DNA of 64,000 nucleotides from a virus (lineage: Duplodnaviria; Heunggongvirae; Uroviricota; Caudoviricetes): the IMG/VR virus record IMGVR_UViG_3300023184_000076, positions 1 to 64,000 of that record; one strand, 5' to 3'. Within the stretch, counting starts at the first letter, position 1. Every line of letters begins with the position of its first letter. The position numbers were made by a program, and so were the translations under genes. Shown one piece after another: positions 11,349-36,243 of the stretch. The notes beneath the pieces were generated by a model. That model searched no databases. It was not told the origin of the DNA and saw only the letters and a program-made list of their open reading frames with translations.

Positions 11349-11377
11349 AAAAAAGTGACCCCATCAAGTTAATGGGA
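11349..11377 (-). terminator. hairpin GTGACCCCatcaagttaatGGGAGTCAC plus U-run
   Basis: Overlaps stop of RNA ligase gene. Confidence 0.5.
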
Positions 11378-12502
11378 GTCACCCACGTTATTTTTTTCAC
11401 CATAGATCAAGTAGTCAGGGTTGATTACTTTAGAAACCTTTCTACGGTCACCAGTTACGGATTTCACAACTATACCTTCGTGAGGAACTTTAGTACCTTC
11501 TATGAAGTTACCGAAGACGTATTTGTCTTGTTCTTCTTTATCCCAATTACCTTGGTATAACAACTCAACCTGTGGTAACTCTAAACAATCAAAGTGTACA
11601 GTTTCATTTATGTATGGTTGGTATTCTCCATCAACTTCAACATCAAATCCTACAAACTTAACATCAGTCAAACCGTACTCGTAGTTTTTTTGTATACCCG
11701 CACCATATATCTCTCCGTATATAACAACACCATCAGTTAAGTTAAATGGTTCGTAAGTATCTTTTACGTGAGCCCACAACTTACCTCTTATATCGTAGTT
11801 GTTCGCCACAGTTTTCCACACATCAGTATCGTAGAAACCTTGAGAGTCAGATCCTTTTTCAACGTTGTGAGAACCATAGACATATTCAAACGCCGCCCAT
11901 TGATTACCAAATAGTACTTTAACACGATCCCACAAAGAAAGTTTTTTCTTTCTAACTATTCCGTAACGAGCGTTAGTTCCGTGAAGTTTACGAGTTATAA
12001 CAACTTCATCTTCCTCATTGAACATATCAGGTACATTCTTTTGGTTAGGGAATTTGTAGTAAACTTTGAAGTTAGGGTTTTGGTGGTATTTTATTTTACG
12101 TCCACCAACACTCAACTGAACGGTCTTAACTGGTGGTTCGTATTTGGTAACTCCCAATATAGTCATCATGTCATCACCATCATTAACATTGTTCTCCAAT
12201 GATTTTGGTGCCAAATATTTGAATGGTATTAACAAACACTCAGAGTAAACTCCACGAAGTTTTACAGTACGAACTCTTTGACCTTTACGAAGGTAGTTAG
12301 TAACTTCCATCAAGTCAGATAATGCCTGAGGTATTACCGCATCTGTGGTCGCAACAACAACCTTATCTCCAGATTGGTATTCACCTTTTTTAGTTATGGC
12401 GTTCCATCCACCAACTAACACTTGTTCTATGTTATCCGCCCCTTCTATTGGTTTAACCTCTCCGATTACACCAACGTAACATACACTATTTTGATTTTCC
12501 AT
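11369..12502 (-). CDS. ATP-dependent RNA ligase, Rnl2-like nucleotidyltransferase
   Basis: Motif I KLHGTN (KxHGxN lysine-adenylate site as in T4 Rnl2 KIHGTN), motif IV EGIVVK, motif V K..KVINPDY. Confidence 0.65.
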   Translation of the reverse strand: MENQNSVCYVGVIGEVKPIEGADNIEQVLVGGWNAITKKGEYQSGDKVVVATTDAVIPQALSDLMEVTNYLRKGQRVRTVKLRGVYSECLLIPFKYLAPKSLENNVNDGDDMMTILGVTKYEPPVKTVQLSVGGRKIKYHQNPNFKVYYKFPNQKNVPDMFNEEDEVVITRKLHGTNARYGIVRKKKLSLWDRVKVLFGNQWAAFEYVYGSHNVEKGSDSQGFYDTDVWKTVANNYDIRGKLWAHVKDTYEPFNLTDGVVIYGEIYGAGIQKNYEYGLTDVKFVGFDVEVDGEYQPYINETVHFDCLELPQVELLYQGNWDKEEQDKYVFGNFIEGTKVPHEGIVVKSVTGDRRKVSKVINPDYLIYGEKNNVGDSH

Positions 12503-14919: not shown

Positions 14920-15573
14920 TTAACCCACAACCCCAACAATATCATCTAAGTGGTGATCATCATTTATTTCAGACATCACTATTCTTTTATCCATCATATG
15001 TACAATCTCAGTTATACTATATGGTTGAAGGTTGTTTCCATCAACTCCAACGTCCAATCTTTTTCCTTTGCCCCATTTTCTACCTGAAGGTAAGTGTACG
15101 TGACCATGAAGGTGAACAACACCTTTACTAAGTCCATTCCAACTTGCAAATGGGTAGTGAGTCATCACAAAGTTCTGACCATCAATATTAACCTGTAAGT
15201 AATCACTAACAGATAAAAACATATCTTTGATGTTATCTCTGTTGTTTTTAATGTGGTGATCGTGGTTTCCAAGAACCAAGTGAATATTTTTACATACCAA
15301 TCGGTCCAAGAAAATTCTAATAAACTCAAATCCACCAAATGCAATATCACCTAACATAATCAAAGTATCGTTCTGACCAACCTTTGAGTTAATGTTGTCA
15401 ACCAATGCGTTATTCATTAGTTCTAATGTTGGGAAATCTCTCGTATTATGATCCGGTACTTTTCCATCAGATGTTCTCCAATCAGTCACACCTCTACAAA
15501 TGTTTTTATGGTTGTAGTGTGGATCCGATGTAACCCACACTCTACCTGTTGTCAATATTTTATCAAATTTCAT
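14920..15573 (-). CDS. calcineurin-like metallophosphoesterase
   Basis: GDIAFGG ... GNHDHH ... GHVH motifs of binuclear metallophosphatases. Confidence 0.6.
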   Translation of the reverse strand: MKFDKILTTGRVWVTSDPHYNHKNICRGVTDWRTSDGKVPDHNTRDFPTLELMNNALVDNINSKVGQNDTLIMLGDIAFGGFEFIRIFLDRLVCKNIHLVLGNHDHHIKNNRDNIKDMFLSVSDYLQVNIDGQNFVMTHYPFASWNGLSKGVVHLHGHVHLPSGRKWGKGKRLDVGVDGNNLQPYSITEIVHMMDKRIVMSEINDDHHLDDIVGVVG

Positions 15574-15577
15574 TTTC

Positions 15578-15979
15578 TTATAATTTAATTTCGAACCTAT
15601 CTTTCATTATCTGAATTTTATCTTCAGGAACACCATGTTGATTAACCCCACCATGTCTGTTTTCAACAATAACGGTGAATACTTTATAATCAAACGTGTC
15701 AGCCATTTTAAAATACGGTTCCATTTCCCACTCTTGAGTAAACGTATTCGAAACGACAATTACATTATTAATATTAGCGGTATGGTTTAATATCATTGCA
15801 GTATGAACACGATCCTGACACCATTTATGAGCATCCTTCAATTTGGTAAAATCAAATTTATATTCACCATTATCCATAAAGAACATATCGGTCTCAAAAT
15901 GAGTACCACCTAATGACTTAGCAAGTGAGGACTTACCTGAACCAGGTACCCCTCTAACAATATAAAGTATTTTTTCCAT
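15578..15979 (-). CDS. P-loop nucleotide/polynucleotide kinase-like protein; start moved to MEKILYIV
   Basis: Walker A GVPGSGKSSLAK 10 aa from the N-terminus, as in T4 Pnk kinase domain. TATATTTG motif and terminator hairpin lie inside the longer track ORF. Confidence 0.55.
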   Translation of the reverse strand: MEKILYIVRGVPGSGKSSLAKSLGGTHFETDMFFMDNGEYKFDFTKLKDAHKWCQDRVHTAMILNHTANINNVIVVSNTFTQEWEMEPYFKMADTFDYKVFTVIVENRHGGVNQHGVPEDKIQIMKDRFEIKL

Positions 15980-15983
15980 ATTG

Positions 15984-15991
15984 CAAATATA
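15984..15991 (-). promoter_or_regulatory. TATATTTG motif upstream of kinase gene (ATG 15979)
   Basis: Sits between terminator hairpin 16015-16030 and the ATG. Confidence 0.4.
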
Positions 15992-16014
15992 CAAAAAAAA
16001 ACGGCATAAAAAAA

Positions 16015-16030
16015 GGGAGATCACTCTCCC
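16015..16030 (-). terminator. hairpin GGGAGAtcacTCTCCC
   Basis: Downstream of 16051..18237. Confidence 0.5.
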
Positions 16031-16050: not shown

Positions 16051-18237
16051 TTAGAATAATTTATCCGTTACAGGTACAGGTTGTGTATTAACCACAGGTT
16101 CCTCTTTTGGTACAGGAGTTCCACCTGTAAGTGCCAACATAACTTCATTACGTATTTCTTGATTCCATTTACAATTAACCGTCATACTTAATCCTTTGGT
16201 ATTATTTAAATATTGTTTAATTTGTCTTAATGTATTACAAGTTTCTTGATTACGTAATTTTCTTTTTCTTTGAGCTTCCGTATCTACAGTAGTACTTACA
16301 CCATTACCATTTCCTGTTGGGAGTCTTTTTCCGGTACCTCTTTCTGTTTCACCACCTTCAGTTTCATTATCACTACCCATACTAGGAGTTTCTTTCGTCT
16401 CACCCTCAGCATTACGACCAAATAAAACTTTAGCGGTTACACCACCAACATGATCAATTTTATAATCGTCAGCCTTTAATGTGGTATTTCCTACCCCTAA
16501 ATCTAAAACAACTGTTTGACGATCATCACTTACACTTTTAATTTTATAATATTGTTTATCAAATATTCCACCCTCATTACCACCTTTTCTAGCTTTTATA
16601 TAAATCCAATCTCCCACACCATAATTAGTTTTATCCCCCGAATAAACTTTTCTTGAATCCTTACCTTTTAATTTTTTAATCTGATCAAAAGTTACCTGAT
16701 CAACAACCCCATCAGTTCTTAATGGTGGACTAACCGTATCTTTATATTTTTCTTGAAATGCTTTTACCGCAATTTCAGTATCAGTACCAAATCCCCCATC
16801 ATCTTTTAAATTTAACTTTTGTTGTACTAATTTAACATCATCACCTTTAGATTTTTTTGCAATAGATAATTCAAAAGCCGGTGGTGTTATTGCCATTATT
16901 GCATTATAAGTGGCATCATCAACAACACCATCAGTTCTTAATGGTGGAGTAAGTTTAGCCCCTTCAGTTTTTTGGAAATTAATTACCTTCTCTAATACCT
17001 GTGGACCAAAAGTAGGATTTTTTTCCGCAGGTAATTCTAATTTACTCATTATATTACCTACTTCCACACCTCTCTGTGGTTTGGATTTATCATACTTTAA
17101 TTCAATCTCAGTTAATAAATTATATCTAAAACCTTTATGTCTATAACTTTCCTGTACAAATGGATTTTCAAGGTCAGGGTCTGTTGTTAACGCAATAAAG
17201 TTATCACTTACTATAACATCATTATATTTCCAAGTATCGGTTTTAGATAATGCATATTGAAAATTAACATCAGTTGCGGGATCAATTGGAAATGGGGTGT
17301 TGGTTGTATCATCGTTTCTTACTTTAATAGCTTGAATGGTTTGATTGTCATTTCTTACTATATAACCATATGAAAATTTATTAATAGTAGGATCATCAGT
17401 CACTAACATATGAACAATACCGTTACCTATTGTGGTTTTTATTTGTCTTTGTTCCCCTAAAGCTGGATGACTAGTTAACCATGTTTCTGTTTGTCCTGCC
17501 CCACCAATTTTTGCAGTAGTTGCTGCATCATCCGCAGCCTTTTTTGCCTCATCATCTTTCTTCTTTTGTGCGGCATCCAAAGTTGCTTTATATTTTTCCT
17601 CAAGTTGTTTTTTCCATGTCTCATAAAACTCATCACTCACCGCAATTGAATTTTCAAATAAACCATCAGTTATTGCATAATCTTCAGCTCTATCTCCTTC
17701 ATCATCATTTTCAATACCATAATCACCACCACCCCAACTATCACTAGTCCCAGGTATACCTAAACCATAATCACCACCACCATATGTTTTAAATTTTTTA
17801 TTTGCCACACAAAAAGTAGGAAAATCAGCTAAATCTTTAAGTTTTGAGGTAATAGTTGCATGACTCATCGCATAGTCTGTTAATTGTGCAAAAAGTGGTG
17901 TAGTGACATTAGTTAGAGCAGTTCCACTTTTCGTTGGTTTACCCATAGCGTTTGCCATATAAGTTTGTGAGCACCACCTATTAATCAGGTCTTTTCCTGA
18001 TAAATTCTTTGCATCCTCTTTTGCCTGATCTAAGAATTCAAAACAAATTCCACCTTCGGGGCATTTTTCGTATGTCATATTATTCACGGAAGTTCCTTTG
18101 GGAACAGTACCGTGTTTAACACTAGTTTTTATACTATATGGTTCAACTTCTTGTAAGTCCTCATTTAACAAACCATAACTTTCATTTAGACTTTGTCTAA
18201 CAATATTTTTTATAAAACTATTTGTAATTTTTTTCAT
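16051..18237 (-). CDS. large protein with two peptidoglycan-binding (PG_binding_1-like) repeats; putative virion-associated cell-wall binding/lytic protein
   Basis: PPLRTDGVVDDATYNAIMAI and PPLRTDGVVDQVTFDQIKKL repeats. Confidence 0.5.
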   Translation of the reverse strand: MKKITNSFIKNIVRQSLNESYGLLNEDLQEVEPYSIKTSVKHGTVPKGTSVNNMTYEKCPEGGICFEFLDQAKEDAKNLSGKDLINRWCSQTYMANAMGKPTKSGTALTNVTTPLFAQLTDYAMSHATITSKLKDLADFPTFCVANKKFKTYGGGDYGLGIPGTSDSWGGGDYGIENDDEGDRAEDYAITDGLFENSIAVSDEFYETWKKQLEEKYKATLDAAQKKKDDEAKKAADDAATTAKIGGAGQTETWLTSHPALGEQRQIKTTIGNGIVHMLVTDDPTINKFSYGYIVRNDNQTIQAIKVRNDDTTNTPFPIDPATDVNFQYALSKTDTWKYNDVIVSDNFIALTTDPDLENPFVQESYRHKGFRYNLLTEIELKYDKSKPQRGVEVGNIMSKLELPAEKNPTFGPQVLEKVINFQKTEGAKLTPPLRTDGVVDDATYNAIMAITPPAFELSIAKKSKGDDVKLVQQKLNLKDDGGFGTDTEIAVKAFQEKYKDTVSPPLRTDGVVDQVTFDQIKKLKGKDSRKVYSGDKTNYGVGDWIYIKARKGGNEGGIFDKQYYKIKSVSDDRQTVVLDLGVGNTTLKADDYKIDHVGGVTAKVLFGRNAEGETKETPSMGSDNETEGGETERGTGKRLPTGNGNGVSTTVDTEAQRKRKLRNQETCNTLRQIKQYLNNTKGLSMTVNCKWNQEIRNEVMLALTGGTPVPKEEPVVNTQPVPVTDKLF

Positions 18238-18240
18238 ATC

Positions 18241-18453
18241 TTATCCCATTAAAGCATTTTTTATGGCCTTAAGTGTTAAAGGTCCTATTTTACCGTCAGG
18301 ATCTAACCCCGCACTTTTATTTGAATTTAACCAATTCTGTATATCCGAAGTGGTATAATCTTGAGTCTGTTCAACCAACACATTAGTTTTAACACCATGT
18401 TTGTTTAAAATGTCTCTGATCTCACTTTCCGTTAATTTTAGTTTAGGTAACAT
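18241..18453 (-). CDS. small PG-binding-domain protein
   Basis: LDPDGKIGPLTLKAIKNAL. Confidence 0.5.
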   Translation of the reverse strand: MLPKLKLTESEIRDILNKHGVKTNVLVEQTQDYTTSDIQNWLNSNKSAGLDPDGKIGPLTLKAIKNALMG

Positions 18454-19602: not shown

Positions 19603-20013
19603 TTAAGATAATATTTTTGTTAAAATTTTAAATAATTCATCATTTTTATCCACAGGTAAGTCATCTATTGTAAAAAAACCACAATCTGAATGTTCATGAC
19701 CATCTTGAGCTTTATTTAAATTTGGCATCTTTTTTACGTCAGATTCGTATAAATAAACATAAATCAAACCTTTTTGTTCACCTTCTTCATCTTTCTTAGT
19801 GATAAATCCAACTAAACTTATTTCATCTTCTATTTTAATATTTGTCTCTTCGTAAAATTCACGATAAGCACAATCTCTTGGTGTTTCATTTGCTTCCAAA
19901 TGCCCTGTTGGGATAAACCATTTGCCTGCATAAGTTTCGTGATCCGCTCGTTTACATAACAAGACTTTATCTCCATATTTTAATATTATGCCCGAACTTC
20001 TATCTGATTTCAT
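19603..20013 (-). CDS. Nudix hydrolase
   Basis: Nudix box GHLEANETPRDCAYREFYEETNI (Gx5Ex7REUxEExGU). Confidence 0.75.
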   Translation of the reverse strand: MKSDRSSGIILKYGDKVLLCKRADHETYAGKWFIPTGHLEANETPRDCAYREFYEETNIKIEDEISLVGFITKKDEEGEQKGLIYVYLYESDVKKMPNLNKAQDGHEHSDCGFFTIDDLPVDKNDELFKILTKILS

Positions 20014-20036
20014 TATAAGAATATATTTATAAGTAT

Positions 20037-20384
20037 ATGGAGTTAATTGTAAATAATAATTTATTCAATGTCAAATGTGTGATCACCAGTAAAGACATAC
20101 AAAAAGGTATGATGGGTAAAAAATTTGACAAAAGTTTTGATGGTATGTTATTCATAATGAAAGATAGTAATCATTCTTTTTGGATGAAGAATTGTATTAT
20201 ACCTTTGGACATAATTTTTATTAAAAATAATAAAATAACAAAAATACATAATAACTGTAAACCATGTAAAAAACCTGAGTGTGATCGTTATACCGGTAAT
20301 GGTGATATGATATTAGAACTCAAAGGTGGTGCCTGTATTAAATATGATATTACAGAAGGTGATACCATTATATTACAAGATTAA
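20037..20384 (+). CDS. DUF192-family protein
   Basis: GMLFIM ... IPLDIIFI motifs characteristic of DUF192/COG1430. Confidence 0.5.
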   Translation: MELIVNNNLFNVKCVITSKDIQKGMMGKKFDKSFDGMLFIMKDSNHSFWMKNCIIPLDIIFIKNNKITKIHNNCKPCKKPECDRYTGNGDMILELKGGACIKYDITEGDTIILQD

Positions 20385-20402
20385 TCTTTTATTTTTTTAA
20401 TA

Positions 20403-21959
20403 TTATCTATTATTTGATCTGAATCTCATTTGATTTGATTTTACTGCCGACTTTGGGAATCTTAATCCTTGTCCTTGTTTTCTAGCGTTTCCTAATGATC
20501 TTGCGTGTTCCGTCATTTCAACCTCAAAATTTGGTTCATATCTATCACCACCATCTTCATCAATTTTTGCTTTTAAAACTCTAACAAACTCATTCTGTAC
20601 CATCTTAGTAAATTTAACATAAGGAGAATCATCTGACTCTTCGTTATATTTGTACTTACCTTCAGGTGGTCTTTTAGATCTCCCTAAGTATGATAACCCA
20701 GAAATATTTGTAATACATTTGTGTCCACCACTATTGGATTGAATTAAATCCCAAGCGTTTACACTAATTGAATCTAACATTCTCATTTCTTTATCTGTTA
20801 AACTACTAAATGGTTTTCTCATTGCCGTTTCAACATCATCAAGAATATCTTCCCCATCAGCCATTTGTTTAAATTCTTTACCATATAAAGCGTTAAAATC
20901 TCTGAATGTAAAACCAACAGATTGTTCACCAAAACCTTTTCCTGATTCTGATATCCATTTTATTGTGGATAAAGGAATATCCTTATCTTGTAATTGCGAT
21001 TTCCACTTGTTTAAGACCTCATCTTTGATATCACCCAAGTTTACACCTTTAAGTGCTCTTTCTTTCTTAAATGGATTACAAGACGCTTGTACTAACCCTA
21101 ATGGCCAAGCAATTACTATGAAGTCAGCATCAGGATTATTTCTGAATGGTGTGTATCTATCGTAGGATCCAGGTTTCATCATACTACCTCCACCATACTG
21201 AACTATAATTTTATCATCAACCTTAACATTCTTATGGGTTTTCATTGTTTGAACATAATTCTCTTTGTTTTTTTCCAAAGATTCTACATCAGCATAATTT
21301 TTTTCTTTGATCTGAGATCTAATGTTCAATAAAATACTTAATAAAGATGGGTTCGCATTCATTACAATATTTTCCAAGAATCCTGGTTTGTTTTTGAACG
21401 CTAGCAATAATTTATTTGCAACCATACCCATTACCATTTTGTTTCTTTGTAATGATTTATCTTTATCTACTTTAAACAAATAGTTCATTACTTCTTCAGG
21501 ACTAATGTCATGTTGTGCATAATTTGCCGAGTCAACCGTAGATATCAAAGTAATATCATCAGAAGGGAAAATATCTCTTGGAGATACTGTTTGGGAAATT
21601 GTTTCAACGTTAGATCTTGAAGATTTAAAATTAGTTGAGGTACCTTGTTCAACACCCGCTTGTGTGTCATGGTGATCCGTATGTATTATGAACATTGGTT
21701 TTCCATGAGCAAAGTCAACCAACACCGGCATTACATCACCTTCAGCGTCTAATTTTTTAATAGCAAATTCTTTATCACCATACTGAATGATTTCAGAATC
21801 AACCACTTTAATTCCGTTTTGCTCTAAGTAATTTTTCATACCTAACGCAGTGGTTACACCGTCTAAATCTTGGTGAAAGTATATTTTTGCTTCAGGGTAT
21901 CTTTTAGATAATTCTCTGATGTTTCTTATTCCCGATTCTGTTATTAACTTTTTCTTCAT
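20403..21959 (-). CDS. DHH-family phosphoesterase (nanoRNase/RecJ-like catalytic core)
   Basis: FHQDLDGVTTA (DxD) and HTDHHDT (DHH) motifs. Confidence 0.6.
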   Translation of the reverse strand: MKKKLITESGIRNIRELSKRYPEAKIYFHQDLDGVTTALGMKNYLEQNGIKVVDSEIIQYGDKEFAIKKLDAEGDVMPVLVDFAHGKPMFIIHTDHHDTQAGVEQGTSTNFKSSRSNVETISQTVSPRDIFPSDDITLISTVDSANYAQHDISPEEVMNYLFKVDKDKSLQRNKMVMGMVANKLLLAFKNKPGFLENIVMNANPSLLSILLNIRSQIKEKNYADVESLEKNKENYVQTMKTHKNVKVDDKIIVQYGGGSMMKPGSYDRYTPFRNNPDADFIVIAWPLGLVQASCNPFKKERALKGVNLGDIKDEVLNKWKSQLQDKDIPLSTIKWISESGKGFGEQSVGFTFRDFNALYGKEFKQMADGEDILDDVETAMRKPFSSLTDKEMRMLDSISVNAWDLIQSNSGGHKCITNISGLSYLGRSKRPPEGKYKYNEESDDSPYVKFTKMVQNEFVRVLKAKIDEDGGDRYEPNFEVEMTEHARSLGNARKQGQGLRFPKSAVKSNQMRFRSNNR

Positions 21960-22043
21960 AGTTATAAATAGTTTTCAACAAAAAAAAGTTTGAGATTCCG
22001 ATGTTTTTATGTAAATTTACTTAAATCAATTAAATTTTATATT

Positions 22044-22361
22044 ATGAAGGAGAAAATCACAAATTTTTTAGAAAAAAGAAAATCAACATTTAAGTCTATG
22101 GGTGTTGTAATTTTTGTTGCGGCGTCACTATTAGGTGGGTTCTCAATGGGTTATCTTTATAACCAACAATATGGACCAAAGAAACCTACCATTGAAATGG
22201 TTAAGGTTAACAGGTCACAGGTTAATTTGGCAATAGATGAACATAATCATCTGATCGTGATCGACAAAACCACAGGTGACTACACGGTTTACCAAGATTC
22301 AATTGGTATGTCAATCTTTAAACTTTACGCTAAGAACATTTATATTGACCAAACAAAATAA
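22044..22361 (+). CDS. membrane-anchored hypothetical protein; start at MKEKITNF
   Basis: TM helix VVIFVAASLLGGFSMGYL. Confidence 0.45.
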   Translation: MKEKITNFLEKRKSTFKSMGVVIFVAASLLGGFSMGYLYNQQYGPKKPTIEMVKVNRSQVNLAIDEHNHLIVIDKTTGDYTVYQDSIGMSIFKLYAKNIYIDQTK

Positions 22362-22367
22362 GAAACT

Positions 22368-22919
22368 ATGAATATCCTCAAATTAACAAAAATAACTTAT
22401 CTTGGTTTATGTGTTGGGGTATTTGTTTTTTTTGGTTCCATGTCCAATGTTAAAACTTCGGATGATTCTGTTTTTACAGACTTAAATGATTACTCAACTA
22501 TTCAATCCCCTACATCAATGAGAATGTATGAACTAATTGAAAAATATAGTACTGAGTATAACATACCAAGATACATCGCCTATAACGTGGCATACATGGA
22601 GACAAGATACTTGGGTCCCTTCCATTGGAACTATAACCCTTATCAAGAATCTTTTGCAGGTGCGGTTGGTCCGATGCAAATTATGCCCTCAACATCTGAT
22701 TATATTAATAAAGTTAATTACGGGAAAAAAAGATTAACTAATGATATTAGATTGAATGTTGAAACAAGTATGAAATTACTTAATAGATTATATTCAAGGT
22801 ATAAAGATTGGGCAGTTGTTTGTGGATGTTACAACACAGGAAGACCCTTAATTAATGATTACGCAAGATACTGTTCGAGTAATTACAATTTTAAAAATAA
22901 GTGGGTTAGTATTAATTAA
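22368..22919 (+). CDS. lytic transglycosylase (SLT domain) with N-terminal signal/TM
   Basis: AYMETRY...AGAVGPMQIMPST matches SLT catalytic E-S / GxMQ motifs. Confidence 0.6.
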   Translation: MNILKLTKITYLGLCVGVFVFFGSMSNVKTSDDSVFTDLNDYSTIQSPTSMRMYELIEKYSTEYNIPRYIAYNVAYMETRYLGPFHWNYNPYQESFAGAVGPMQIMPSTSDYINKVNYGKKRLTNDIRLNVETSMKLLNRLYSRYKDWAVVCGCYNTGRPLINDYARYCSSNYNFKNKWVSIN

Positions 22920-22995: not shown

Positions 22996-23021
22996 AACTC
23001 CCACTGATTATAGTGGGAGTT
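22996..23021. terminator. perfect 10-bp hairpin AACTCCCACTgattatAGTGGGAGTT, bidirectional
   Basis: Between convergent SLT and MTase genes. Confidence 0.6.
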
Positions 23022-23856
23022 CTTTTATTTGTTCTAATGCCTTGAAGTAATTAATTCTTGTCTCGGCTATTTGTTTGTAATTTTCACTTAACTCAATCCC
23101 TAACCATCTACGTTCCAATATCTGTGCTGCAACTAATGTTGTTCCTGAACCAGCAAATGGGTCCAATATTACATCGTTTTTGTAGGATAGTATCTTAATC
23201 GCTTTGGTGGGTATGTCCATTGAGAAAGTCGCCTTGGTGAGTGATTTAGTATCTGCAAAGTAATTCCACTGACCAAACACAAGTTCCATAAACTCTTTCT
23301 TATCCGTCTCCTCATATACAATTTTTTTCTTTAATGACCCATCTTCCTGTTCAATTTCAGTTGGTGTCCCTTTCCACTGAGGTTCTCCTTTAACCTTTTT
23401 AATGTGGTGTTTTTTGTATGCCAATATCACACACTCCTTTGGATTATATATATACGGACTTGATGGGCTCATCCAAGATCCCCACGCAGTAGTTTTACTT
23501 CTATGTGGCGACTGTTCTTCAAGATCAACGATACCAAAGAACCCAAATCCAATTTCTTTCATTATCTGATACATCTCAGAAACGAAGAAGATTCGACCAC
23601 CTTTTTTCTGACGATTGATTTCATACGGAATATTCAAGGCAATTCTTCCATCATCTTTTAGTACGTTGTAAGCCTCGGTTAACCAATTTTTTGCAAATAC
23701 CAAATACTCATCAAATTCAACATCGTCGTCGTGTACATCATAAGCAATACCAACACCATATGGTGGTGATGTACAAATTAAGTCCACAGATCCCTCAGGT
23801 AATGTTTTCATTACCTCAATACAATCCCCATTTATTATTTTTCCTGTTTCTATCAT
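23008..23856 (-). CDS. DNA N6-adenine/N4-cytosine methyltransferase (beta class, orphan)
   Basis: Motif IV DLICTSPPY near N-terminus, motif I LDPFAGSGTT near C-terminus. Confidence 0.8.
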   Translation of the reverse strand: MIETGKIINGDCIEVMKTLPEGSVDLICTSPPYGVGIAYDVHDDDVEFDEYLVFAKNWLTEAYNVLKDDGRIALNIPYEINRQKKGGRIFFVSEMYQIMKEIGFGFFGIVDLEEQSPHRSKTTAWGSWMSPSSPYIYNPKECVILAYKKHHIKKVKGEPQWKGTPTEIEQEDGSLKKKIVYEETDKKEFMELVFGQWNYFADTKSLTKATFSMDIPTKAIKILSYKNDVILDPFAGSGTTLVAAQILERRWLGIELSENYKQIAETRINYFKALEQIKELPL

Positions 23857-24278: not shown

Positions 24279-24551
24279 TTATTTATTTTTTAATGTTTCT
24301 ATGTGATGTTCTAAATACCATAACGCTTTTTTAAGGTCCTGTAATTCTTTATCCGAATCTTTCTTACCCGCCCTTGATATATACTTTACCGTATTTCCTA
24401 ATGAGAATCCTAATTCCCAAGCATCAATTACTTTGATTGCCTCATAAGGGTTATCTTCTCCTCCGTAATGTTGGGGGTGATTAACTTGTTCTATTTTTGG
24501 TGGGGGGCACATACAAAGTACGTTAGCTCCACATACACATTCTTTTTCCAT
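24279..24551 (-). CDS. DUF3310-family phage protein
   Basis: PQHYGGEDNPYEAIKVIDAW ... GNTVKYISRAGKK ... DLKKALWYLE. Confidence 0.65.
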   Translation of the reverse strand: MEKECVCGANVLCMCPPPKIEQVNHPQHYGGEDNPYEAIKVIDAWELGFSLGNTVKYISRAGKKDSDKELQDLKKALWYLEHHIETLKNK

Positions 24552-25669
24552 TAGTCTTCTCTATATTCTTTTAATAATTCATCATTTGAAATGGTCCCAT
24601 ATTTCTCATTAAGACCTTCCATATCAACATCCTTATTCATCATTATTTTAACATCGTAGATTTGATCGGTAGTTATTAAAGATATGTCAATTTCTTTAAT
24701 AATTTTGTATGGGTCAGCATTTGATCCAGGTCTTCTATCCTCAACATAACCTTTCCAATTTTTTGCGGTATCTCTTGGAATTCGAATTGATGCCCCACGA
24801 TCTGAAACCCCCCAACTAAATTTATCAATTGATTGTGTTTCAAATTTACCAGTTAAACGGAGATTGTTATCTGACCCGTAAGCTTTTATATGTGCTTCAT
24901 GTCTTACCTCAAACGCATTAAACAATGATATAAAATATTTTTCGTTACCATCATTTCTCATTTTATCTGTTGAGAAGTTCGTATGAAGTCCAGACCCGTT
25001 CCATTCCCCTTTTTGAATTGGTTTTGGATGTAGAATAATCCTATAATTATATTTTTCAGAAATTTTAAACAAAAAGTACCTAGTCATCCACAAATCATCA
25101 CCCGCTTTTAATTTACCTTTTGTAAACACTTGGTATTCCCATTGACCTAACGCAACCTCAGCGTTAATCCCTGTAATGTCAATTCCATATTTTAAACACA
25201 TATCCATATGTTCTTCAACAAAATCTCTTCCGGCAACATATTCTCCAACACCACAATAATATTTACCTTGTGGTTCCAAGTTATTTTCGTCGTGACCTAA
25301 AATACATTTGTTTTTTCTATCGTAGATAAAATATTCTTGTTCAAACCCAAACCACAAATCTTCTTGATCTCCAATTAGTTCTGATCTTGTATTAGTTTCG
25401 TGTGGAGTACCATCAGAATTCATTACTTCACACAACACGTAAATTGTATTTGTATGATCAGAAAAATAATGTCTAACAGGTTTTAAAATACAATCAGAAC
25501 TATTACCTTCCGCTTGTAATGTTGATGACCCATCAAAGTTCCATTCAGGAAAATTATTTAGAACTAAACAGTTTTTAATTTGTTCATAGTCCATAATTTT
25601 AACTTTACTTCTTAAATTTGGTTCAGGCGTATACCCATCAATCCACACATATTCTAACTTAACTTTCAT
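24551..25669 (-). CDS. glnA: glutamine synthetase, type II-like (372 aa)
   Basis: N-terminal signature FDGSSTLQAEGNSSDCIL and ATP-site signature KPIQKGEWNGSGLHTNFS both match the GS PROSITE patterns; EYVWIDG N-terminus. Confidence 0.85.
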   Translation of the reverse strand: MKVKLEYVWIDGYTPEPNLRSKVKIMDYEQIKNCLVLNNFPEWNFDGSSTLQAEGNSSDCILKPVRHYFSDHTNTIYVLCEVMNSDGTPHETNTRSELIGDQEDLWFGFEQEYFIYDRKNKCILGHDENNLEPQGKYYCGVGEYVAGRDFVEEHMDMCLKYGIDITGINAEVALGQWEYQVFTKGKLKAGDDLWMTRYFLFKISEKYNYRIILHPKPIQKGEWNGSGLHTNFSTDKMRNDGNEKYFISLFNAFEVRHEAHIKAYGSDNNLRLTGKFETQSIDKFSWGVSDRGASIRIPRDTAKNWKGYVEDRRPGSNADPYKIIKEIDISLITTDQIYDVKIMMNKDVDMEGLNEKYGTISNDELLKEYRED

Positions 25670-32899: not shown

Positions 32900-33217
32900 T
32901 TAATTTAATATAATGTCCCCAAACTTAGTCTTTTGGATAAACCCTTCCACTTTGTTTGCATAAAGTAACTTTTGGTTTAATTCAGGTGCTTTGAGGTCAA
33001 CCACAACATCAATAATTTGTTGTTTGGTCAACACAAAGTCTTCACCTTTACTATGGTTCTCAATAGATTTTTCTTTCAATTTTTGAAAGAACTCTTCTTT
33101 TTGTACTTCACCAACAAGATCCATAAAGTCACCTGGGTTTTTTTCAAAGAAGAGTATTAGTTGACTAATATAAATTTCTATGTCTACGTTCATTATTATG
33201 ATCTTATAGGTCCACAA
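32900..33217 (-). CDS. hypothetical protein (105 aa)
   Basis: ORF. Confidence 0.45.
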   Translation of the reverse strand: MWTYKIIIMNVDIEIYISQLILFFEKNPGDFMDLVGEVQKEEFFQKLKEKSIENHSKGEDFVLTKQQIIDVVVDLKAPELNQKLLYANKVEGFIQKTKFGDIILN

Positions 33218-35085
33218 TGTTTCTTCAATTCAGGAGGGAAATTAATAAACCAAAATCCCTCATCTTCTGTCATATATTCTTCTAATTTTTTAGGTATTCT
33301 CATACCAGGATTTGAGTTTTCAGTTGAGAAGAAGTTCAAACAATATAACTCACCGAACGCCTCAGGAATACTCTCTAATTGCGGATTATTTGGTAAGTTT
33401 ATAAATTTCAATTTGGTACAATTTCCAATACTTTCAGGAATTGATTTAACCATATTATCAATAATCAATGTTTTTAATTCGGTTAATTTACCAATACTTG
33501 ACGGTATATCCAAAGCAATTGTACTTTTACTTGTATTTTCCATTTGGATCATAGTTGTATTAGACGGAATGTGTTCAAAGAAATCTTCAAATCCAAATAA
33601 AGCAACATACTTAGAGTTATCATCTTTTGGATATTCAAGTCCAACGTAACCACTACTACTAACTCCACCCAATTGACCTGAGAATTTTTCTCTTAATTTT
33701 TTCTTATTCTCTCTCATTATAGGACTATTGATGAATGCAATATCAGTGTCATTCAATTGACCTAAACTTTTTGACATCAACCCTTGTAGTTTTCTTGCCG
33801 CATAATATTTCAATACACTAGGTTCTGAATTATTGATCATGTCCGCAGTCAAGTCCATTCCCAAACCTAAGTATTTGTTTTTAAGATTCTCAGTAAAATT
33901 ACTATAAATTTCATTACCGTTACCTCTGTATGTTAAATCAGGACTTGCAATCTCAAGCCACATTTCAGCCGCTTGTTCACTACCAAGTTCTTTAATCGCA
34001 TCTTTATTGATACTAGTGTTTTTGAAATTATTCATTTCTCTTTGTTCCTCCGCAGATAATGGATCGGCAACAAACAAATGTTCTTTACCTTCTAATTTTG
34101 GAACTTTACTAACAATCGTAGACCAAGCCTCTCTCTTATGTCCTGAATATCCACCAGCCATATTTTGACCATCAGCAATTCTCTTACCACCGTAAGGTTC
34201 AACTAAGATAACAACCGCATAGTTAAGATCCCCAAATGGTTTATCTTTATCGATAACATAATAAATTGTTAAGTTATGACCCAAACGATAGTTATAGTAC
34301 ATATTACCACCACCTGATTTAGAAATGCACCAACTTCTTCCGTTGGCCAATTTAATACATTGTTCTTTACCACTTGGTTTGAAGATTAATAAGTTATTGT
34401 CATCATATATTGTTTCAATATCCTTATAATCATCTTTACTATCTTTAATATCATCCGTTAAGTCTCCCATACCATCTAATGTATGTTCAAGCTCATCAAA
34501 ACTCATAAACAACAATGGTGGTAAATTAGCCGGTAATCTATGGTATAGATCTAGGTATGTTGATACATAATATATTAATTGTTCAGGTGTCACATTAGCC
34601 CCGTCTTCCTTAAATTTCTTAAGTGCCGCCGCAGTCAACATGGTATTAAACTTACTCTGTAAAAACTCAACTAATTTCAAATAAGGCATTTTAAGAACAT
34701 CTCTTTGATTTAAAGGTAAAATAGGAAATAATTCATAGAATTTACGTAAAGCCAATTTAACCGCATTTTTGTCGGCTCCTTTGTTCGCCTCCATATATTT
34801 TTTGAAGATACCTTTTTCTTGTTTTTTAATCTCTTTGGATAAAACAATATTTTTAACAACACTATAACTTAATTTAGTAATGTCCCTCTGATCTTGTGGT
34901 AAACCACCTTTATATTTATCGAATGCGTTAATAACCGCAGTTATTTGTTCTTCCGTATCTTTAGTTGTAGGTTTGTATTTGTCAATTAAAAATTTAACAA
35001 CCTTTTCAGACATTGCCTCACTCACAAGACGTTTACCGTTTGTGTTTTCTTTAATGACAGTTGATAATACCTTAAGTAATTCCAT
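33196..35085 (-). CDS. large protein with C-terminal leucine-rich repeats
   Basis: LTELKTLIIDNMVKSIPESIGNCTKLKFINLPNNPQLESIPEAFGELYCL (LxxLxLxxN/LxxIP periodicity). Confidence 0.55.
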   Translation of the reverse strand: MELLKVLSTVIKENTNGKRLVSEAMSEKVVKFLIDKYKPTTKDTEEQITAVINAFDKYKGGLPQDQRDITKLSYSVVKNIVLSKEIKKQEKGIFKKYMEANKGADKNAVKLALRKFYELFPILPLNQRDVLKMPYLKLVEFLQSKFNTMLTAAALKKFKEDGANVTPEQLIYYVSTYLDLYHRLPANLPPLLFMSFDELEHTLDGMGDLTDDIKDSKDDYKDIETIYDDNNLLIFKPSGKEQCIKLANGRSWCISKSGGGNMYYNYRLGHNLTIYYVIDKDKPFGDLNYAVVILVEPYGGKRIADGQNMAGGYSGHKREAWSTIVSKVPKLEGKEHLFVADPLSAEEQREMNNFKNTSINKDAIKELGSEQAAEMWLEIASPDLTYRGNGNEIYSNFTENLKNKYLGLGMDLTADMINNSEPSVLKYYAARKLQGLMSKSLGQLNDTDIAFINSPIMRENKKKLREKFSGQLGGVSSSGYVGLEYPKDDNSKYVALFGFEDFFEHIPSNTTMIQMENTSKSTIALDIPSSIGKLTELKTLIIDNMVKSIPESIGNCTKLKFINLPNNPQLESIPEAFGELYCLNFFSTENSNPGMRIPKKLEEYMTEDEGFWFINFPPELKKHCGPIRS

Positions 35086-35127: not shown

Positions 35128-35967
35128 TTAGTAATTCATTATTAATAATTCCTCACCCATATTTTGTTTTGTTCCTTTCTTTGCCGCTGCCGCTTTAGCA
35201 AACTCTTTTTTCTCCCATCGATATATGTTATCAGGAAACCAAAAATGTAAAAGTTCAAAATCATAATACGATAATGAAAACTTACCTTGAATCCCGTTTA
35301 AAACATTTGCCAACCTCTCGTGATCTTCTCTATCAAAATCGTGGTTAGAATAGTAGTTCTCAGTTTTCCAATAAGGTGGATCAACATAGAAGTAAGTTGT
35401 TGGTGAATCATACTTTTCAATAACCTCAGCAAAATCCATATTCTCAACGTGAGTTATCTTTATGAAATGTTCAACCCAATCAGGTTTCATTAACTTATCT
35501 CTGAATGTTAAGTATTTAGATTTGTACTTACCTTTTAAGTCAATGAAAGAACTTTTTTCAGGTTTAGATCCTGAGAACACTTGTGTTAAAACATATGCGT
35601 ATTTAGCAGCAACATCATAATTACCAGGTTCTACGCTGAAATTATCAGCAAATATTTCAGCCTGAAACCTTACAAATTGTTCTTTATAAATTGAAGGTGT
35701 CACTTCTTCCCCAAATTGTTGACACGGTATTGCATTAATTGACTCTAATAATCTTTCAGGATTTTGAATACATTGAAACAAATTATAGTTGAGTGGGTTA
35801 AAGTCGTTGTAAACAACTCTCTTTAGATTTGGAAACTGTTTTAAGTCCATATTAAAGAAACACCAAAACATACCCCCAAATGTTTCAACATATGTCTCCA
35901 TGTCTTTATCATAGAAAGGGACAATCCACTTTCCAATTTTACTTTTACCTCCGATGTATGATAGCAT
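35128..35967 (-). CDS. dam: Dam-like D12-class N6-adenine DNA methyltransferase
   Basis: MLSYIGGKSKIGKWI N-terminus and FYVDPPYW motif IV. Confidence 0.8.
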   Translation of the reverse strand: MLSYIGGKSKIGKWIVPFYDKDMETYVETFGGMFWCFFNMDLKQFPNLKRVVYNDFNPLNYNLFQCIQNPERLLESINAIPCQQFGEEVTPSIYKEQFVRFQAEIFADNFSVEPGNYDVAAKYAYVLTQVFSGSKPEKSSFIDLKGKYKSKYLTFRDKLMKPDWVEHFIKITHVENMDFAEVIEKYDSPTTYFYVDPPYWKTENYYSNHDFDREDHERLANVLNGIQGKFSLSYYDFELLHFWFPDNIYRWEKKEFAKAAAAKKGTKQNMGEELLIMNY

Positions 35968-36069: not shown

Positions 36070-36243
36070 ATGGAAGAAGAAACATACAACAAAACAGAAG
36101 CAACCCAAGTTACAGGTTGTAGAAAATGTAATCAAACCACAGGGAAAACACAAAAATTTGTTTTTATTACCGGTGGTATCATGTTTGCATTATCAATATA
36201 TGGGGCGGTTTCCTTATATAAAGACATTATGTCTTTATTTTAA
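36070..36243 (+). CDS. small membrane protein (57 aa, ...CRKCNQ...FVFITGGIMFALSIYGAVSLY), not in track
   Basis: Own translation. Confidence 0.3.
   Translation: MEEETYNKTEATQVTGCRKCNQTTGKTQKFVFITGGIMFALSIYGAVSLYKDIMSLF

Follow-up and report, generated by a model that had tools for sequence, protein, structure and literature searches.

DHH-family enzymes degrade c-di-AMP, pGpG and cA4, and Iyer et al. 2021 (PMC7824862) predicted that those encoded by jumbo phages and giant viruses act against cyclic-nucleotide signalling in defence. Iyer et al. 2017 (PMC5512222) described polyvalent proteins, injected multi-domain products of phages and conjugative elements, and do not mention a DHH module. 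In the literature searched, we found no characterised phage DHH-family anti-defence enzyme. The phage phosphodiesterases Acb1, Apyc1 and AcrIII-1, which clear immune second messengers, have 2H, MBL and ring nuclease folds, respectively, unrelated to DHH. The first-pass annotation of a 64,000-nucleotide stretch of viral DNA (hereafter, the window) had suggested conceptually the same job for three adjacent genes, encoding a Nudix hydrolase, a DUF192 protein and a DHH-family phosphoesterase, as a candidate anti-defence module. It is true that this combination is not a described system, although a conflict role had already been predicted for jumbo-phage DHH enzymes (PMC7824862).

The three adjacent ORFs were all found as annotated (Table 1), and they are real genes, with thousands of homologues at 30–97% identity. 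The DUF192 gene had been called divergently oriented; this holds with respect to the Nudix gene (23-bp gap), but the gene is convergent with the DHH-like gene (18-bp gap). Since it lies on the strand opposite to both neighbours, it is co-transcribed with neither of them. A scan for promoters and terminators, by which transcription units are not definable, found no terminators, and promoter-like sites were no commoner than in shuffled sequences; the host promoters may be of a non-sigma-70 type. The TM-protein and SLT genes (21990..22919) form a mobile cassette of the envelope or lysis type, and in another locus (L080) DUF192, TM-protein and SLT transglycosylase genes are co-oriented and contiguous in this order. 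In the window, the DHH-like gene lies between DUF192 and this cassette with PG-binding proteins nearby, and no recognisable structural genes adjoin it. Genes for RNA repair (AAA_33 kinase, Metallophos, RNA ligase and CCA-adding enzyme) make up a split set 4.5–18 kb away, and the window also carries an SbcC-like gene and a primase. A tRNA scan over the whole window found zero.

Table 1. Genes of the locus and domains of the DHH-like protein, in window coordinates.
Feature	Position	Strand	Remarks
Nudix hydrolase gene	19603..20013	-	136 aa; minimal Nudix protein
DUF192 (COG1430) gene	20037..20384	+	115 aa
DHH-like gene	20403..21959	-	518 aa; divergent two-domain DHH/DHHA1 metal-dependent phosphoesterase (predicted)
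Disordered basic 50-aa C-terminal tail	20406..20552	-	pLDDT <50; closest relatives only
DHHA1 domain	20670..21227	-	~aa 245-430; R268-Y269, N295, K334, SGGH invariant
Helical linker/insert, family-specific	21228..21509	-	~aa 150-244; helices H154-240 in predicted model
DHH catalytic domain	21510..21902	-	~aa 20-150; motifs I-IV; beta-alpha secondary structure, pLDDT >90
Single-TM protein gene	21990-22361	+	105-123 aa; hydrophobic N-terminus in translation
TM-anchored SLT lytic transglycosylase gene	22368-22919	+	Pfam SLT E 8.6e-13; hydrophobic N-terminus
N6/N4 DNA methyltransferase gene	23008..23856	-	Pfam PF01555 E 5e-34; neighbour family F0

Linkage was counted over 37 dereplicated clades in which the DHH-like gene is flanked by 3 kb or more of sequence on either side. 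DUF192 abutted the DHH-like gene in 10/37 clades and a Nudix gene was found within 3 kb in 9/37, while neither was nearby in ~70% of them. The order DHH-like gene, convergent DUF192, Nudix persisted in one phage lineage, down to ~45–60% identity of the DHH-like protein, and small flanking ORFs turned over while this order stayed; in close relatives, SmpB occupies the place of the Nudix gene. In a distant huge-phage clade a Nudix gene lies 1–1.5 kb downstream of the DHH-like gene, and proximity of the two is seen in two deep clades; what recurs there is only this loose proximity and not the trio. The opposite-strand genes located between the DHH-like and Nudix genes in huge phages (families F10 and F16) were considered as divergent DUF192 proteins and rejected (hhalign probability <1%). 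The trio is best explained as synteny within a single uncultivated jumbo-phage lineage, made up of separately transcribed genes, and not as a three-component system: the limited co-occurrence, the opposite strand of DUF192 and the replacement of Nudix by SmpB all speak against a single anti-defence module.

The Nudix gene had been described as a clear hydrolase, and this was borne out by its Pfam score (PF00293, E 1.9e-21, 76.9 bits against a cut-off of 21.1) and by an intact catalytic box, G37-x5-E43-x7-R51-E52-F-Y-E55-E56-T-N-I (G37 to I59), in which the REx2EE core is complete and N substitutes for the penultimate G. The protein also matched PHROG 1198 (MutT/Nudix). No subfamily signature was recognised: all NCBIfam equivalogs scored far under their cut-offs, including the MutT-type 8-oxo-dGTPase models (36.1 bits against 148 and 34.6 against 97.9), and PDB matches were mixed across subfamilies. 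ADP-ribose pyrophosphatases and ApnA hydrolases are marked by a proline ~15–16, or a tyrosine ~16–18, residues past the Nudix box. This hallmark is not present, residues 74–77 being K-D-E-E. The Nudix protein would be a loosely linked, dispensable pyrophosphohydrolase, which could act on related NDP-X or 5′-ppp substrates.

The DUF192 protein (PF02643, E 1.7e-22, 79.8 bits against a cut-off of 27) contains both the GMLF and the PLDIIF motifs pointed out in the annotation, is homologous to PDB entries 3M7A and 3PJY (E 1.4e-8 and 2.5e-6) and has three cysteines, Cys53, Cys74 and Cys100, that are invariant in the alignment. It has no signal peptide; the bacterial proteins have a signal region at the N-terminus that is missing here. 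It is a cell-derived, envelope-type protein, to which the literature on DUF192, UPF0127 and COG1430 assigns no function, and there is no evidence of functional cooperation with the DHH-like enzyme or with Nudix. Neither a PHROG match nor a tblastn match in 50,697 phage records was obtained, and the presence in phages of a DUF192 gene that is unmatched among cultured phage genomes is a separate small puzzle.

The assignment of the 518-aa protein to the DHH family, made from its DxD and DHH motifs, proved right. Motifs I–IV (H29-x-D31-x-D33, D82, D95-H96-H97 and D143) are complete and did not vary across 41 sequences with identities as low as 27%, and the DHHA1 motif S410-G411-G412-H413 was invariant or near-invariant in the same alignment. 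Pfam DHH (PF01368) matched aa 26–112 below threshold (19.6 bits against 28.1), Pfam DHHA1 did not match, and sub-threshold DHH matches were obtained in just 20/42 relatives; these missed thresholds reflect the sensitivity of the models and not a loss of features. A family profile gave nothing significant against PDB sequences, and fold comparison was required, in which structural alignments covered both domains (e.g. 273/317 residues of 8A8K). The region that had been taken for a long uncharacterised C-terminal extension consists of the helical linker (conserved columns N182, L186, K189, N190, S205 and Y235 in the family alignment), the DHHA1 domain, a C-terminal helix and the disordered tail; DHHA1 was identified by fold, in the kind of structure search suggested in the annotation, and by SGGH. 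The DHHA1 domain itself holds a mostly helical, family-specific insert at about aa 305–405. A cold-shock/OB-fold match at aa 331–386 (E 1.3e-3) was judged spurious, being helical in the confident model and lost with the family profile. The tail is an indel polymorphism: it is a clean in-frame indel of ~153 nt relative to 468-aa relatives, located exactly where the DUF192 stop codon meets it, and the 3′ end of the DHH-like gene is an indel hotspot. The window protein carries no cargo domain, only the DHH/DHHA1 module and this tail. Considering that the catalytic and DHHA1 apparatus is complete, the protein is almost certainly an active phosphoesterase, as predicted from its residues and fold.

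When compared with the stand-alone NrnA, pAp-phosphatase, DhhP and GdpP enzymes (8A8K, 8IU7, 9R7O, 5XSI and 5O1U), the DHH-like protein showed 10–16% identity and no significant match by sequence. Its core of ~467 aa exceeds the ~320 aa of the NrnA/pAp-phosphatase type by the linker (~90 aa) and the DHHA1 insert (~50–60 aa), and only 230–300 residues aligned to those structures; both inserts carry invariant residues. The canonical motif of NrnA/pAp-phosphatase-type enzymes is GGGH-x-x-AAG. The corresponding motif of the DHH-like protein reads SGGH-x-x-ITN, and the protein is not of the compact ~310–340-aa two-domain, sequence-recognisable form by which NrnA is known. The family is further set apart from these enzymes by its restriction to phages. 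Identity to archaeal RecJ-like nucleases (PF0399/HAN-type 5YH1, RecJ-Cdc45/GAN 7BHI, 5X4H and RecJ2 7YKV) was 12–14%. A helicase or GINS context, which together with a CMG-interacting insert would mark a Cdc45/GAN replisome factor, was not seen around the gene. With the AR9 'NrnB' protein and those of PhiEaH1, PaBG, Bobb, RP12 and Klosneuvirus, for which a conflict role has been predicted, it shares membership of the virus-encoded DHH superfamily. These are ~300-aa canonical NrnA/B-like proteins that matched the DHH-like model at E ~1e-5 with 10–14% identity (BFVD), and the DHH-like clade is separate from them and longer.

The protein founds a large, unnamed, almost phage-restricted branch of the DHH/DHHA1 enzymes. 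The family comprises >3,900 clusters at 90% identity and 424 at 50% identity. Freshwater and marine viromes are rich in it, and it occurs on contigs as long as 483 kb and in huge phages of 630–640 kb. Among the 50,697 phage records, huge phages alone matched it, all cultured phages lacking it, and every source labels the protein 'hypothetical', the family being missed by Pfam thresholds, PHROGs and NCBIfam alike. The gene is single-copy and spread across several deep phage lineages, and it is highly conserved (71% identity where DUF192 shows 60% and Nudix 47–49%). Five matches were obtained among 185,579 species genomes: one is AT-rich phage DNA (L177), three are MAG contigs of 2–3 kb with discordant taxonomy and 57–72% identity (L175, L176 and L179), which are probably mis-binned phage, and one is a true cellular locus (L178). 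A few secreted homologues with all motifs intact were found in Myxococcota-type MAGs, indicating that the enzyme works without cytoplasmic partner proteins; their genomic context was uninformative. No phage member of the family has a signal peptide or a TM segment. Loci of the distant clades were retrieved once a distant member headed the alignment, single distant proteins giving none as seeds, and exact look-ups of distant members returned only 2–4-kb contigs.

Neighbour families rest on a simple ORF caller and on ad hoc clustering with BLAST and HMMs, and Pfam annotation covered a part of them. The N6/N4 methylase was the most constant upstream neighbour (14 clades), and the anti-Thoeris gene Tad6 (PF25188, E 2e-25) was found downstream in 4 clades, at 32 bp from the DHH-like gene in L138; the Tad6 cases sit behind stretches of singleton ORFs. 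PDB searches with the Tad6 homologue and with the small downstream ORFs gave no useful match. In relatives, the DHH-like protein is fused at its C-terminus to PG_binding_1 (3), DUF3293/SAM lyase (3), M23, GH19, sigma-70, GNAT, SET or PIN domains. Two of these were checked and proved to be single continuous ORFs, namely the PG_binding+GH19 fusion (P0122, L089) and a DUF3293/SAM-lyase fusion (P0173, L090). Such relatives share the domain classes of polyvalent proteins (peptidoglycan hydrolases, SAM lyase, acetyltransferase, methyltransferase and nuclease; PMC5512222) and combine at least two disparate domains, whereas the window protein is a single module, and injection would be a prediction. 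In 6 clades a phage lysozyme gene precedes the DHH-like gene by 3 bp in the same orientation, and in ~9 clades SLT genes are found at a distance of 0.03–2.6 kb. Cell-wall hydrolase genes were ~10-fold denser within 3 kb than at 3–10 kb (0.048 against 0.005 per kb), the P-values of this comparison being inflated by a Poisson test that ignores shared ancestry, and a cell-wall domain occurred within 3 kb in only ~29% of clades. Neighbours in other clades include PolB, PNK, NrdD/G, thymidylate synthase, Pyr_excise and an HD-kinase (HD+AAA_33), a set that suggests nucleic-acid metabolism. The 'FGFEFEG' neighbour family (F5) was considered as a GS-like amidoligase akin to the GlnA-like gene of the window and rejected, with no PDB match and an hhalign probability of 0.2%; its sole match was a sub-threshold pentapeptide repeat.

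From the genes, fold, catalytic residues, distribution, linkage and fusions described above, we infer an activity, a substrate class and a role. The DHH-like protein is most likely a stand-alone Mn2+/Mg2+-dependent exo-phosphodiesterase, catalytically intact but highly diverged, in which the DHH domain (DxD, D, DHH and D) would hold the metals, the DHHA1 domain (R268, K298, K334 and SGGH) would clamp a 5′-phosphorylated nucleotide and the two helical inserts with their invariant residues would shape a specific pocket. Its probable substrates are pAp, nanoRNA and linear or cyclic di- and oligonucleotides, which would be converted to mononucleotides. We tentatively favour the view that the locus is a syntenic block whose DHH-like enzyme acts alone on small nucleotides and serves host takeover or counter-defence rather than replication. 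The gene would then be a conserved anchor edging a hypervariable accessory islet, behind the DNA methylase, and the C-terminus of its relatives a site for swappable polyvalent-type cargo. The SAM-lyase and other polyvalent-type fusions, Tad6 downstream and the methylase upstream fit a conflict role; by contrast, high conservation, a single copy and occurrence in several deep lineages give the look of a core housekeeping gene, and the fusions and islet neighbours may reflect a mere recombination hotspot. It is doubtful that the protein is the constant catalytic module of a new phage effector class with swappable cargo, delivered at or just after DNA entry. The target of such effectors would be a nucleotide second messenger: immune signals such as cOA, CDN or ADPR derivatives, whose breakdown Nudix would complete, or else c-di-AMP, whose loss would weaken envelope homeostasis alongside the linked wall hydrolases.

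Nucleotide salvage is a serious rival to counter-defence, even if we consider it somewhat unlikely. Here the DHH-like enzyme would be a nanoRNase/pAp-phosphatase-type 'finisher' that turns host RNA and DNA oligonucleotides into mononucleotides for a very large genome, Nudix would be a house-cleaning or RppH-like enzyme yielding 5′-monophosphate ends or NMPs, and adjacency would be inherited synteny in a nucleic-acid-metabolism region. The high conservation and wide vertical distribution of the gene, its PolB, PNK, NrdD/G, ThyA, Pyr_excise and HD+AAA_33 neighbours in other clades, the RNA-repair set of the window and the NrnA/NrnB-like DHH proteins of other jumbo phages and giant viruses are all consistent with salvage, and the secreted Myxococcota-type homologues fit nutrient scavenging. 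Salvage leaves unexplained, however, why SAM lyase, sigma-70, SET, GNAT and peptidoglycan hydrolase domains are joined in frame to members of the family, as well as the Tad6 and hypervariable-islet context; moreover, the family is far from the ~300-aa viral NrnA-like proteins, and two conserved inserts imply a more specific substrate. The cell-wall associations raise another, distinctly improbable, explanation, namely that the virion carries the protein and ejects it along with the DNA, or that the protein works with cell-wall hydrolases during entry or lysis, as the constant module of a polyvalent family that may remove c-di-AMP or another envelope-homeostasis nucleotide. The fusions to M23, PG_binding_1+GH19 and PG_binding_1, the nearby lysozyme and SLT genes, the position of the window gene, the secreted cellular homologues and the published polyvalent-protein concept (PMC5512222) point this way, but phage members lack export signals, structural genes are not seen beside the window gene, most clades have no cell-wall domain close by, and the association may stem from a shared late-gene or islet location. 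The contrary outcome named in the first-pass annotation, a RecJ/GAN-like single-strand exonuclease serving phage recombination, repair or replication with a MutT-type Nudix, is highly improbable. PfRecJ gave the longest Foldseek alignments, a faint recJ match (TIGR00644) was seen, some clades have PolB and Pyr_excise nearby, and the SbcC-like gene and primase lie in the window; on the other hand, the recJ equivalog score was 14.4 against a cut-off of 396.9, OB-fold and RecJ C-terminal domains are absent and the inserts are helical in the model, and Nudix stayed under every MutT equivalog cut-off. Secreted homologues and cargo fusions, peptidoglycan hydrolases and SAM lyase among them, argue against an archaeal RecJ/GAN-type replisome role and are hard to reconcile with recombination.

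Returning to the favoured counter-defence role, if it is correct, a new fold joins the short list of phage enzymes that clear immune-signalling nucleotides, and the gene becomes an anchor with which to locate jumbo-phage anti-defence islets, with Tad6, SAM lyase and methylase beside it. Should the protein belong to a cargo-carrying effector class, it would be the first DHH-family enzyme with which a phage counters defence or sensitises its host, while a function in salvage would show how giant phages complete nucleic-acid recycling. Recognition of the DHH/DHHA1 module provides an immediate, testable annotation for thousands of 'hypothetical' phage genes.

The three open reading frames in which the first-pass annotation had recognized a Nudix, a DUF192 and a DHH-like protein are real and were found exactly at the positions it had assigned to them (Table). 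The DHH-like protein had no PHROG match and no meaningful NCBIfam match, and searching the PDB by sequence alone, even with the family profile, gave no significant match, a measure of the distance between this clade and characterized DHH proteins. A word-indexed search recovered upwards of 3,900 homologues, of which many showed 70–97% identity; they are usually 466–469 aa long, lie on contigs of up to 328 kb and include no named protein. An exhaustive search with 50%-identity representatives defined a family of 424 clusters (E ≤ 1e-3), whose conserved core extends from about residue 3 to residues 430–468. Aligning 41 members with identities as low as 27% showed these residues to be invariant: H29, D31 and D33 (motif I), D82 (motif II), D95-H96-H97 (motif III), D143 (motif IV), R268-Y269, N295, K334 and G411-G412-H413, the last being the DHHA1 'GGGH'-type motif. 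The AlphaFold2 model built from this alignment was confident (mean pLDDT 86.6, pTM 0.85), and Foldseek matched it to PDB structures of DhhP, GdpP, PggH, TM1595, pAp phosphatase, P. furiosus RecJ and RecJ–Cdc45, with E-values of 2e-7 to 1e-4. Though very diverged, the protein is a complete DHH–DHHA1 enzyme with its catalytic apparatus intact, and is predicted to act as a metal-dependent exo-phosphodiesterase on small 5′-phosphorylated nucleotides.

Locations of features in the window and in loci gathered around DHH-like homologues
Feature	Location	Strand	Remark
CCA-adding/poly(A) polymerase head-domain protein	2087-2896
SPFH/Band-7 protein	3221-4126
RNA ligase	11369-12502		PHA02142 OB domain
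Calcineurin-like phosphoesterase	14920-15573
AAA_33 P-loop kinase	15578-16024
728-aa protein	16051-18453		PG_binding_1 repeats, 'GGGDYG' motifs
Nudix	19603-20013	-	above Pfam threshold
DUF192	20037-20384	+	above Pfam threshold
DHH-like, 518 aa	20403-21959	-	sub-threshold Pfam DHH match (19.6 bits vs 28.1)
Single-TM protein + TM-anchored SLT transglycosylase	21990-22919	+	also L080 6740-8009
Glutamine-synthetase-like protein	24551-25669		Gln-synt_C + Gln-synt_N
LRR protein	33196-35085
Dam-type D12 methylase	35128-35967
DnaJ, full-length	36240-37148		J, Zn-finger and C-terminal domains
SprB-repeat protein	62244-63584
Tad6 homologues (uncultivated phages)	L164 7398-7889; L138 9400-9843; L123 11396-11983		also in L125, L135, L140
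'FGFEFEG' family	L007 4116-5510; L101 9700-11088; L177 1631-5888		triplicated in L177
SmpB in Nudix slot	L001 7947-8378; L047 11944-12375
Secreted DHH-like homologues	L178 5827-7491; L180 8001-9578		L180: P0208

The C-terminal half, for which the first-pass annotation had left the choice between DHHA1 and a novel domain, proved to contain a DHHA1 domain interrupted by an insert that is mostly helical; the other parts are a helical linker or insert (about aa 150–244), a C-terminal helix and a disordered basic tail (aa 473–518). Two family-specific inserts hold the invariant residues K189, K334 and E338, which suggests that the protein recognizes a specific, conserved ligand rather than a fast-evolving host protein. 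A weak cold-shock-domain match fell in predicted helices and was dismissed as spurious.

The family forms a new, large, phage-restricted clade within the DHH/DHHA1 superfamily. In BFVD, the only close structures were two uncharacterized metagenomic phage proteins, whereas the DHH phosphohydrolases of about 300 aa from AR9, PhiEaH1, PaBG, Bobb, RP12 and several giant viruses matched the model only at an E-value of about 1e-5 and 10–14% identity. Scanning one genome per species across 185,579 prokaryotic species yielded five loci, every one in a metagenome-assembled genome (MAG). Locus L177 is AT-rich phage DNA, and L175, L176 and L179, 2–3-kb contigs in taxonomically discordant bins with 57–72% identity, are probably mis-binned phage. 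L178, from a Myxococcales MAG with 69% GC, is a true cellular locus, and its homologue has 33% core identity, all motifs and a secretion signal at the N-terminus. Signal peptides are likewise present in P0200 and P0208 (MCC6752105.1, on a 210-kb contig of a Deltaproteobacteria MAG), two more representatives that keep all catalytic motifs and have ordinary bacterial neighbors. These three proteins, from Myxococcales and Deltaproteobacteria MAGs, were the only non-phage members found, while none of about 360 full-length phage members had a signal peptide or TM segment. The family is thus carried almost entirely by phages, apart from a small cellular offshoot whose members are secreted; the existence of this offshoot implies that the predicted catalytic unit works without cytoplasmic partners.

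The first-pass annotation had treated the three genes as one module, which was not borne out. We dereplicated 175 gathered loci at 80% DHH-like identity into 51 clades and sorted every ORF lying up to 5 kb from the DHH-like gene into neighbor families. Among the 37 clades with at least 3 kb of flank on both sides, DUF192 abutted the DHH-like gene in 10 and Nudix lay within 3 kb of it in 9. The lineage of the window has a recurring order, DUF3310, N6/N4 methylase, DHH-like and then a convergent DUF192 followed by Nudix, in which DUF192 always abuts (−27 to +19 bp) or, now and then, lies further away. This block is kept down to about 45–60% (DHH-like), about 50% (DUF192) and 38–47% (Nudix) identity, amid complete turnover of the surrounding small ORFs. 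In the largest related clade the Nudix slot is taken by the gene for the trans-translation factor SmpB. In a huge-phage clade Nudix lies 1.1–1.4 kb downstream of the DHH-like gene, clearly in L007 (E 2e-12) and marginally elsewhere (18.6–20.6 bits against a cut-off of 21.1); two families of opposite-strand genes at the DUF192 position of that clade, F10 and F16, were unrelated to DUF192. All three partner classes were about ten times denser within 3 kb of the DHH-like gene than at 3–10 kb, with P-values that are overstated because the test ignores shared ancestry. In summary, linkage to DUF192 is synteny limited to a lineage, and linkage to Nudix is somewhat wider, a loose proximity that recurs in two deep clades.

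DUF192 is a single plus-strand gene between two minus-strand genes, head-to-head with Nudix, 23 bp apart, and tail-to-tail with the DHH-like gene, 18 bp apart. A promoter scan was uninformative (17 sites versus 19.3 in shuffles), its one near-consensus promoter-like site lying just upstream of the Nudix start, and no terminators were found. The junction of DUF192 with the DHH-like 3′ end (window 20385–20402 and 20403–20552; L005, L013) is an indel hotspot. In the 468-aa forms the two stops overlap by 4 bp; the 518-aa forms differ from them by a clean in-frame extension of about 153 nt exactly at the DUF192 stop-codon junction, and this extension is the disordered tail; the window has an additional 16-nt A-rich spacer; and three loci (L011, L012 and L045) carry insertions of 0.5–1.5 kb. 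In locus L080, DUF192 directly adjoins the genes for a single-TM protein and a TM-anchored SLT transglycosylase and runs in their direction, and this cassette separates the DHH-like gene from Nudix (DHH-like → | ← SLT ← TM protein ← DUF192 | → Nudix). The window has the same three plus-strand genes in the same order, with the DHH-like gene antisense between them. The TM protein–SLT pair is a mobile cassette, possibly of a holin-like protein and a signal-anchored lysin, whose place and orientation with respect to the DHH-like gene change from clade to clade. The Nudix protein has no subfamily signature and so cannot be named as either MutT-like or an ADP-ribose enzyme. DUF192 has no function assigned in the literature searched and no counterpart in 50,697 phage records or in PHROGs; the phage versions have no equivalent of the signal region at the N-terminus of the bacterial proteins and carry invariant Cys53, Cys74 and Cys100, mostly in a CxxCxxxxC stretch missing from the aligned segment of 3M7A.

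The DHH-like family does have conflict-type fusions and neighbors. Pfam analysis of 42 long members revealed C-terminal PG_binding_1 (3), DUF3293/SAM lyase (3), M23 peptidase, GH19, sigma-70 regions 2 and 4, GNAT, SET, PIN and SAF domains, as well as N-terminal DUF5661. A PG_binding–GH19 fusion (P0122, locus L089) and a DUF3293/SAM-lyase fusion (P0173, L090) are each one continuous ORF, the former in the same syntenic context. The same partner classes have been described (PMC5512222) for 'polyvalent proteins', which are injected along with phage or plasmid DNA; that paper nowhere mentions a DHH module. A wall-related domain was fused to the DHH-like gene or lay within 3 kb of it in 15 of the 51 clades; SLT genes were nearby in about 9, and in 6 a phage lysozyme on the same strand preceded the gene by 3 bp. 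Another neighbor family, F25, corresponds to the Thoeris inhibitor Tad6 (PF25188; 90 bits, E 2e-25), which blocks the NAD+-processing site of the defense protein (bioRxiv 10.64898/2026.01.28.702374). In 4 clades the Tad6 gene lies downstream of the DHH-like gene on the same strand, at a distance of 32 bp in L138; it closes a hypervariable series of small singleton ORFs, and a convergent SLT–PolB block comes immediately after it. The most constant upstream neighbor was a DNA methylase (14 clades); PolB, PNK, NrdD/NrdG, thymidylate synthase, Pyr_excise and an HD+AAA_33 protein were neighbors in other clades. Directly upstream in 10 huge-phage clades is F5, an unannotated family of ~460 aa that combines an 'FGFEFEG' motif at the N-terminus with pentapeptide-like repeats at the C-terminus; it matched nothing in PDB or PHROGs and showed no detectable relation to glutamine synthetase.

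We tentatively favor a role in host takeover or counter-defense, because no other interpretation explains the fusions to SAM-lyase, sigma, SET, GNAT and wall-hydrolase domains, the position beside Tad6 and the hypervariable islet, and the methylase partner. Nucleotide salvage or RNA-end turnover leaves these associations unexplained. It draws support from the strong conservation of the protein, its neighbors from nucleic-acid metabolism, its structural resemblance to NrnA and pAp phosphatase, and the existence of secreted homologues in cells, and we consider it a serious rival that is somewhat less likely. A virion- or envelope-coupled role, which partly overlaps with host takeover or counter-defense, appears improbable. 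Still less probable is a RecJ/GAN-type function in recombination or at the replisome, given that the protein lacks an OB fold, has a negligible recJ score and has secreted and cargo-bearing relatives. The enzyme families and the nucleotide-level conflict proposed by the first-pass annotation were reasonable and have received some new circumstantial support; the three-gene unit was not upheld. The family matters mainly as a set of abundant unannotated enzymes with a testable link to phage–host conflict.

With about 31% GC the window is AT-rich, and simple ORF calling placed 80 of its 93 ORFs on the minus strand. It carries a large-phage gene set (RNA ligase, SbcC-like ATPase, DnaG-type primase, DUF3310 and two DNA methylases), and its SprB-repeat protein hints at a Bacteroidota host. 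DNA and protein comparison with the 50,697 phage records found no close cultured phage, and the sole matches to the region were metagenomic 'huge phages' of 634–735 kb. In 5 clades the glutamine-synthetase-like gene is conserved at a distance of about 2.6 kb on the upstream side of the DHH-like gene. A split RNA-repair set, with the kinase, phosphoesterase and RNA ligase 4.5–9 kb from the DHH-like gene and the CCA-adding enzyme about 17 kb away, suggests healing and sealing of tRNA or other RNA ends against host anticodon nucleases. The 728-aa protein has no recognized catalytic domain, and the 70-aa ORF after it gives weak PG-binding-like matches; in some relatives the DHH-like protein, too, bears PG_binding_1, the domain that is repeated in the 728-aa protein.
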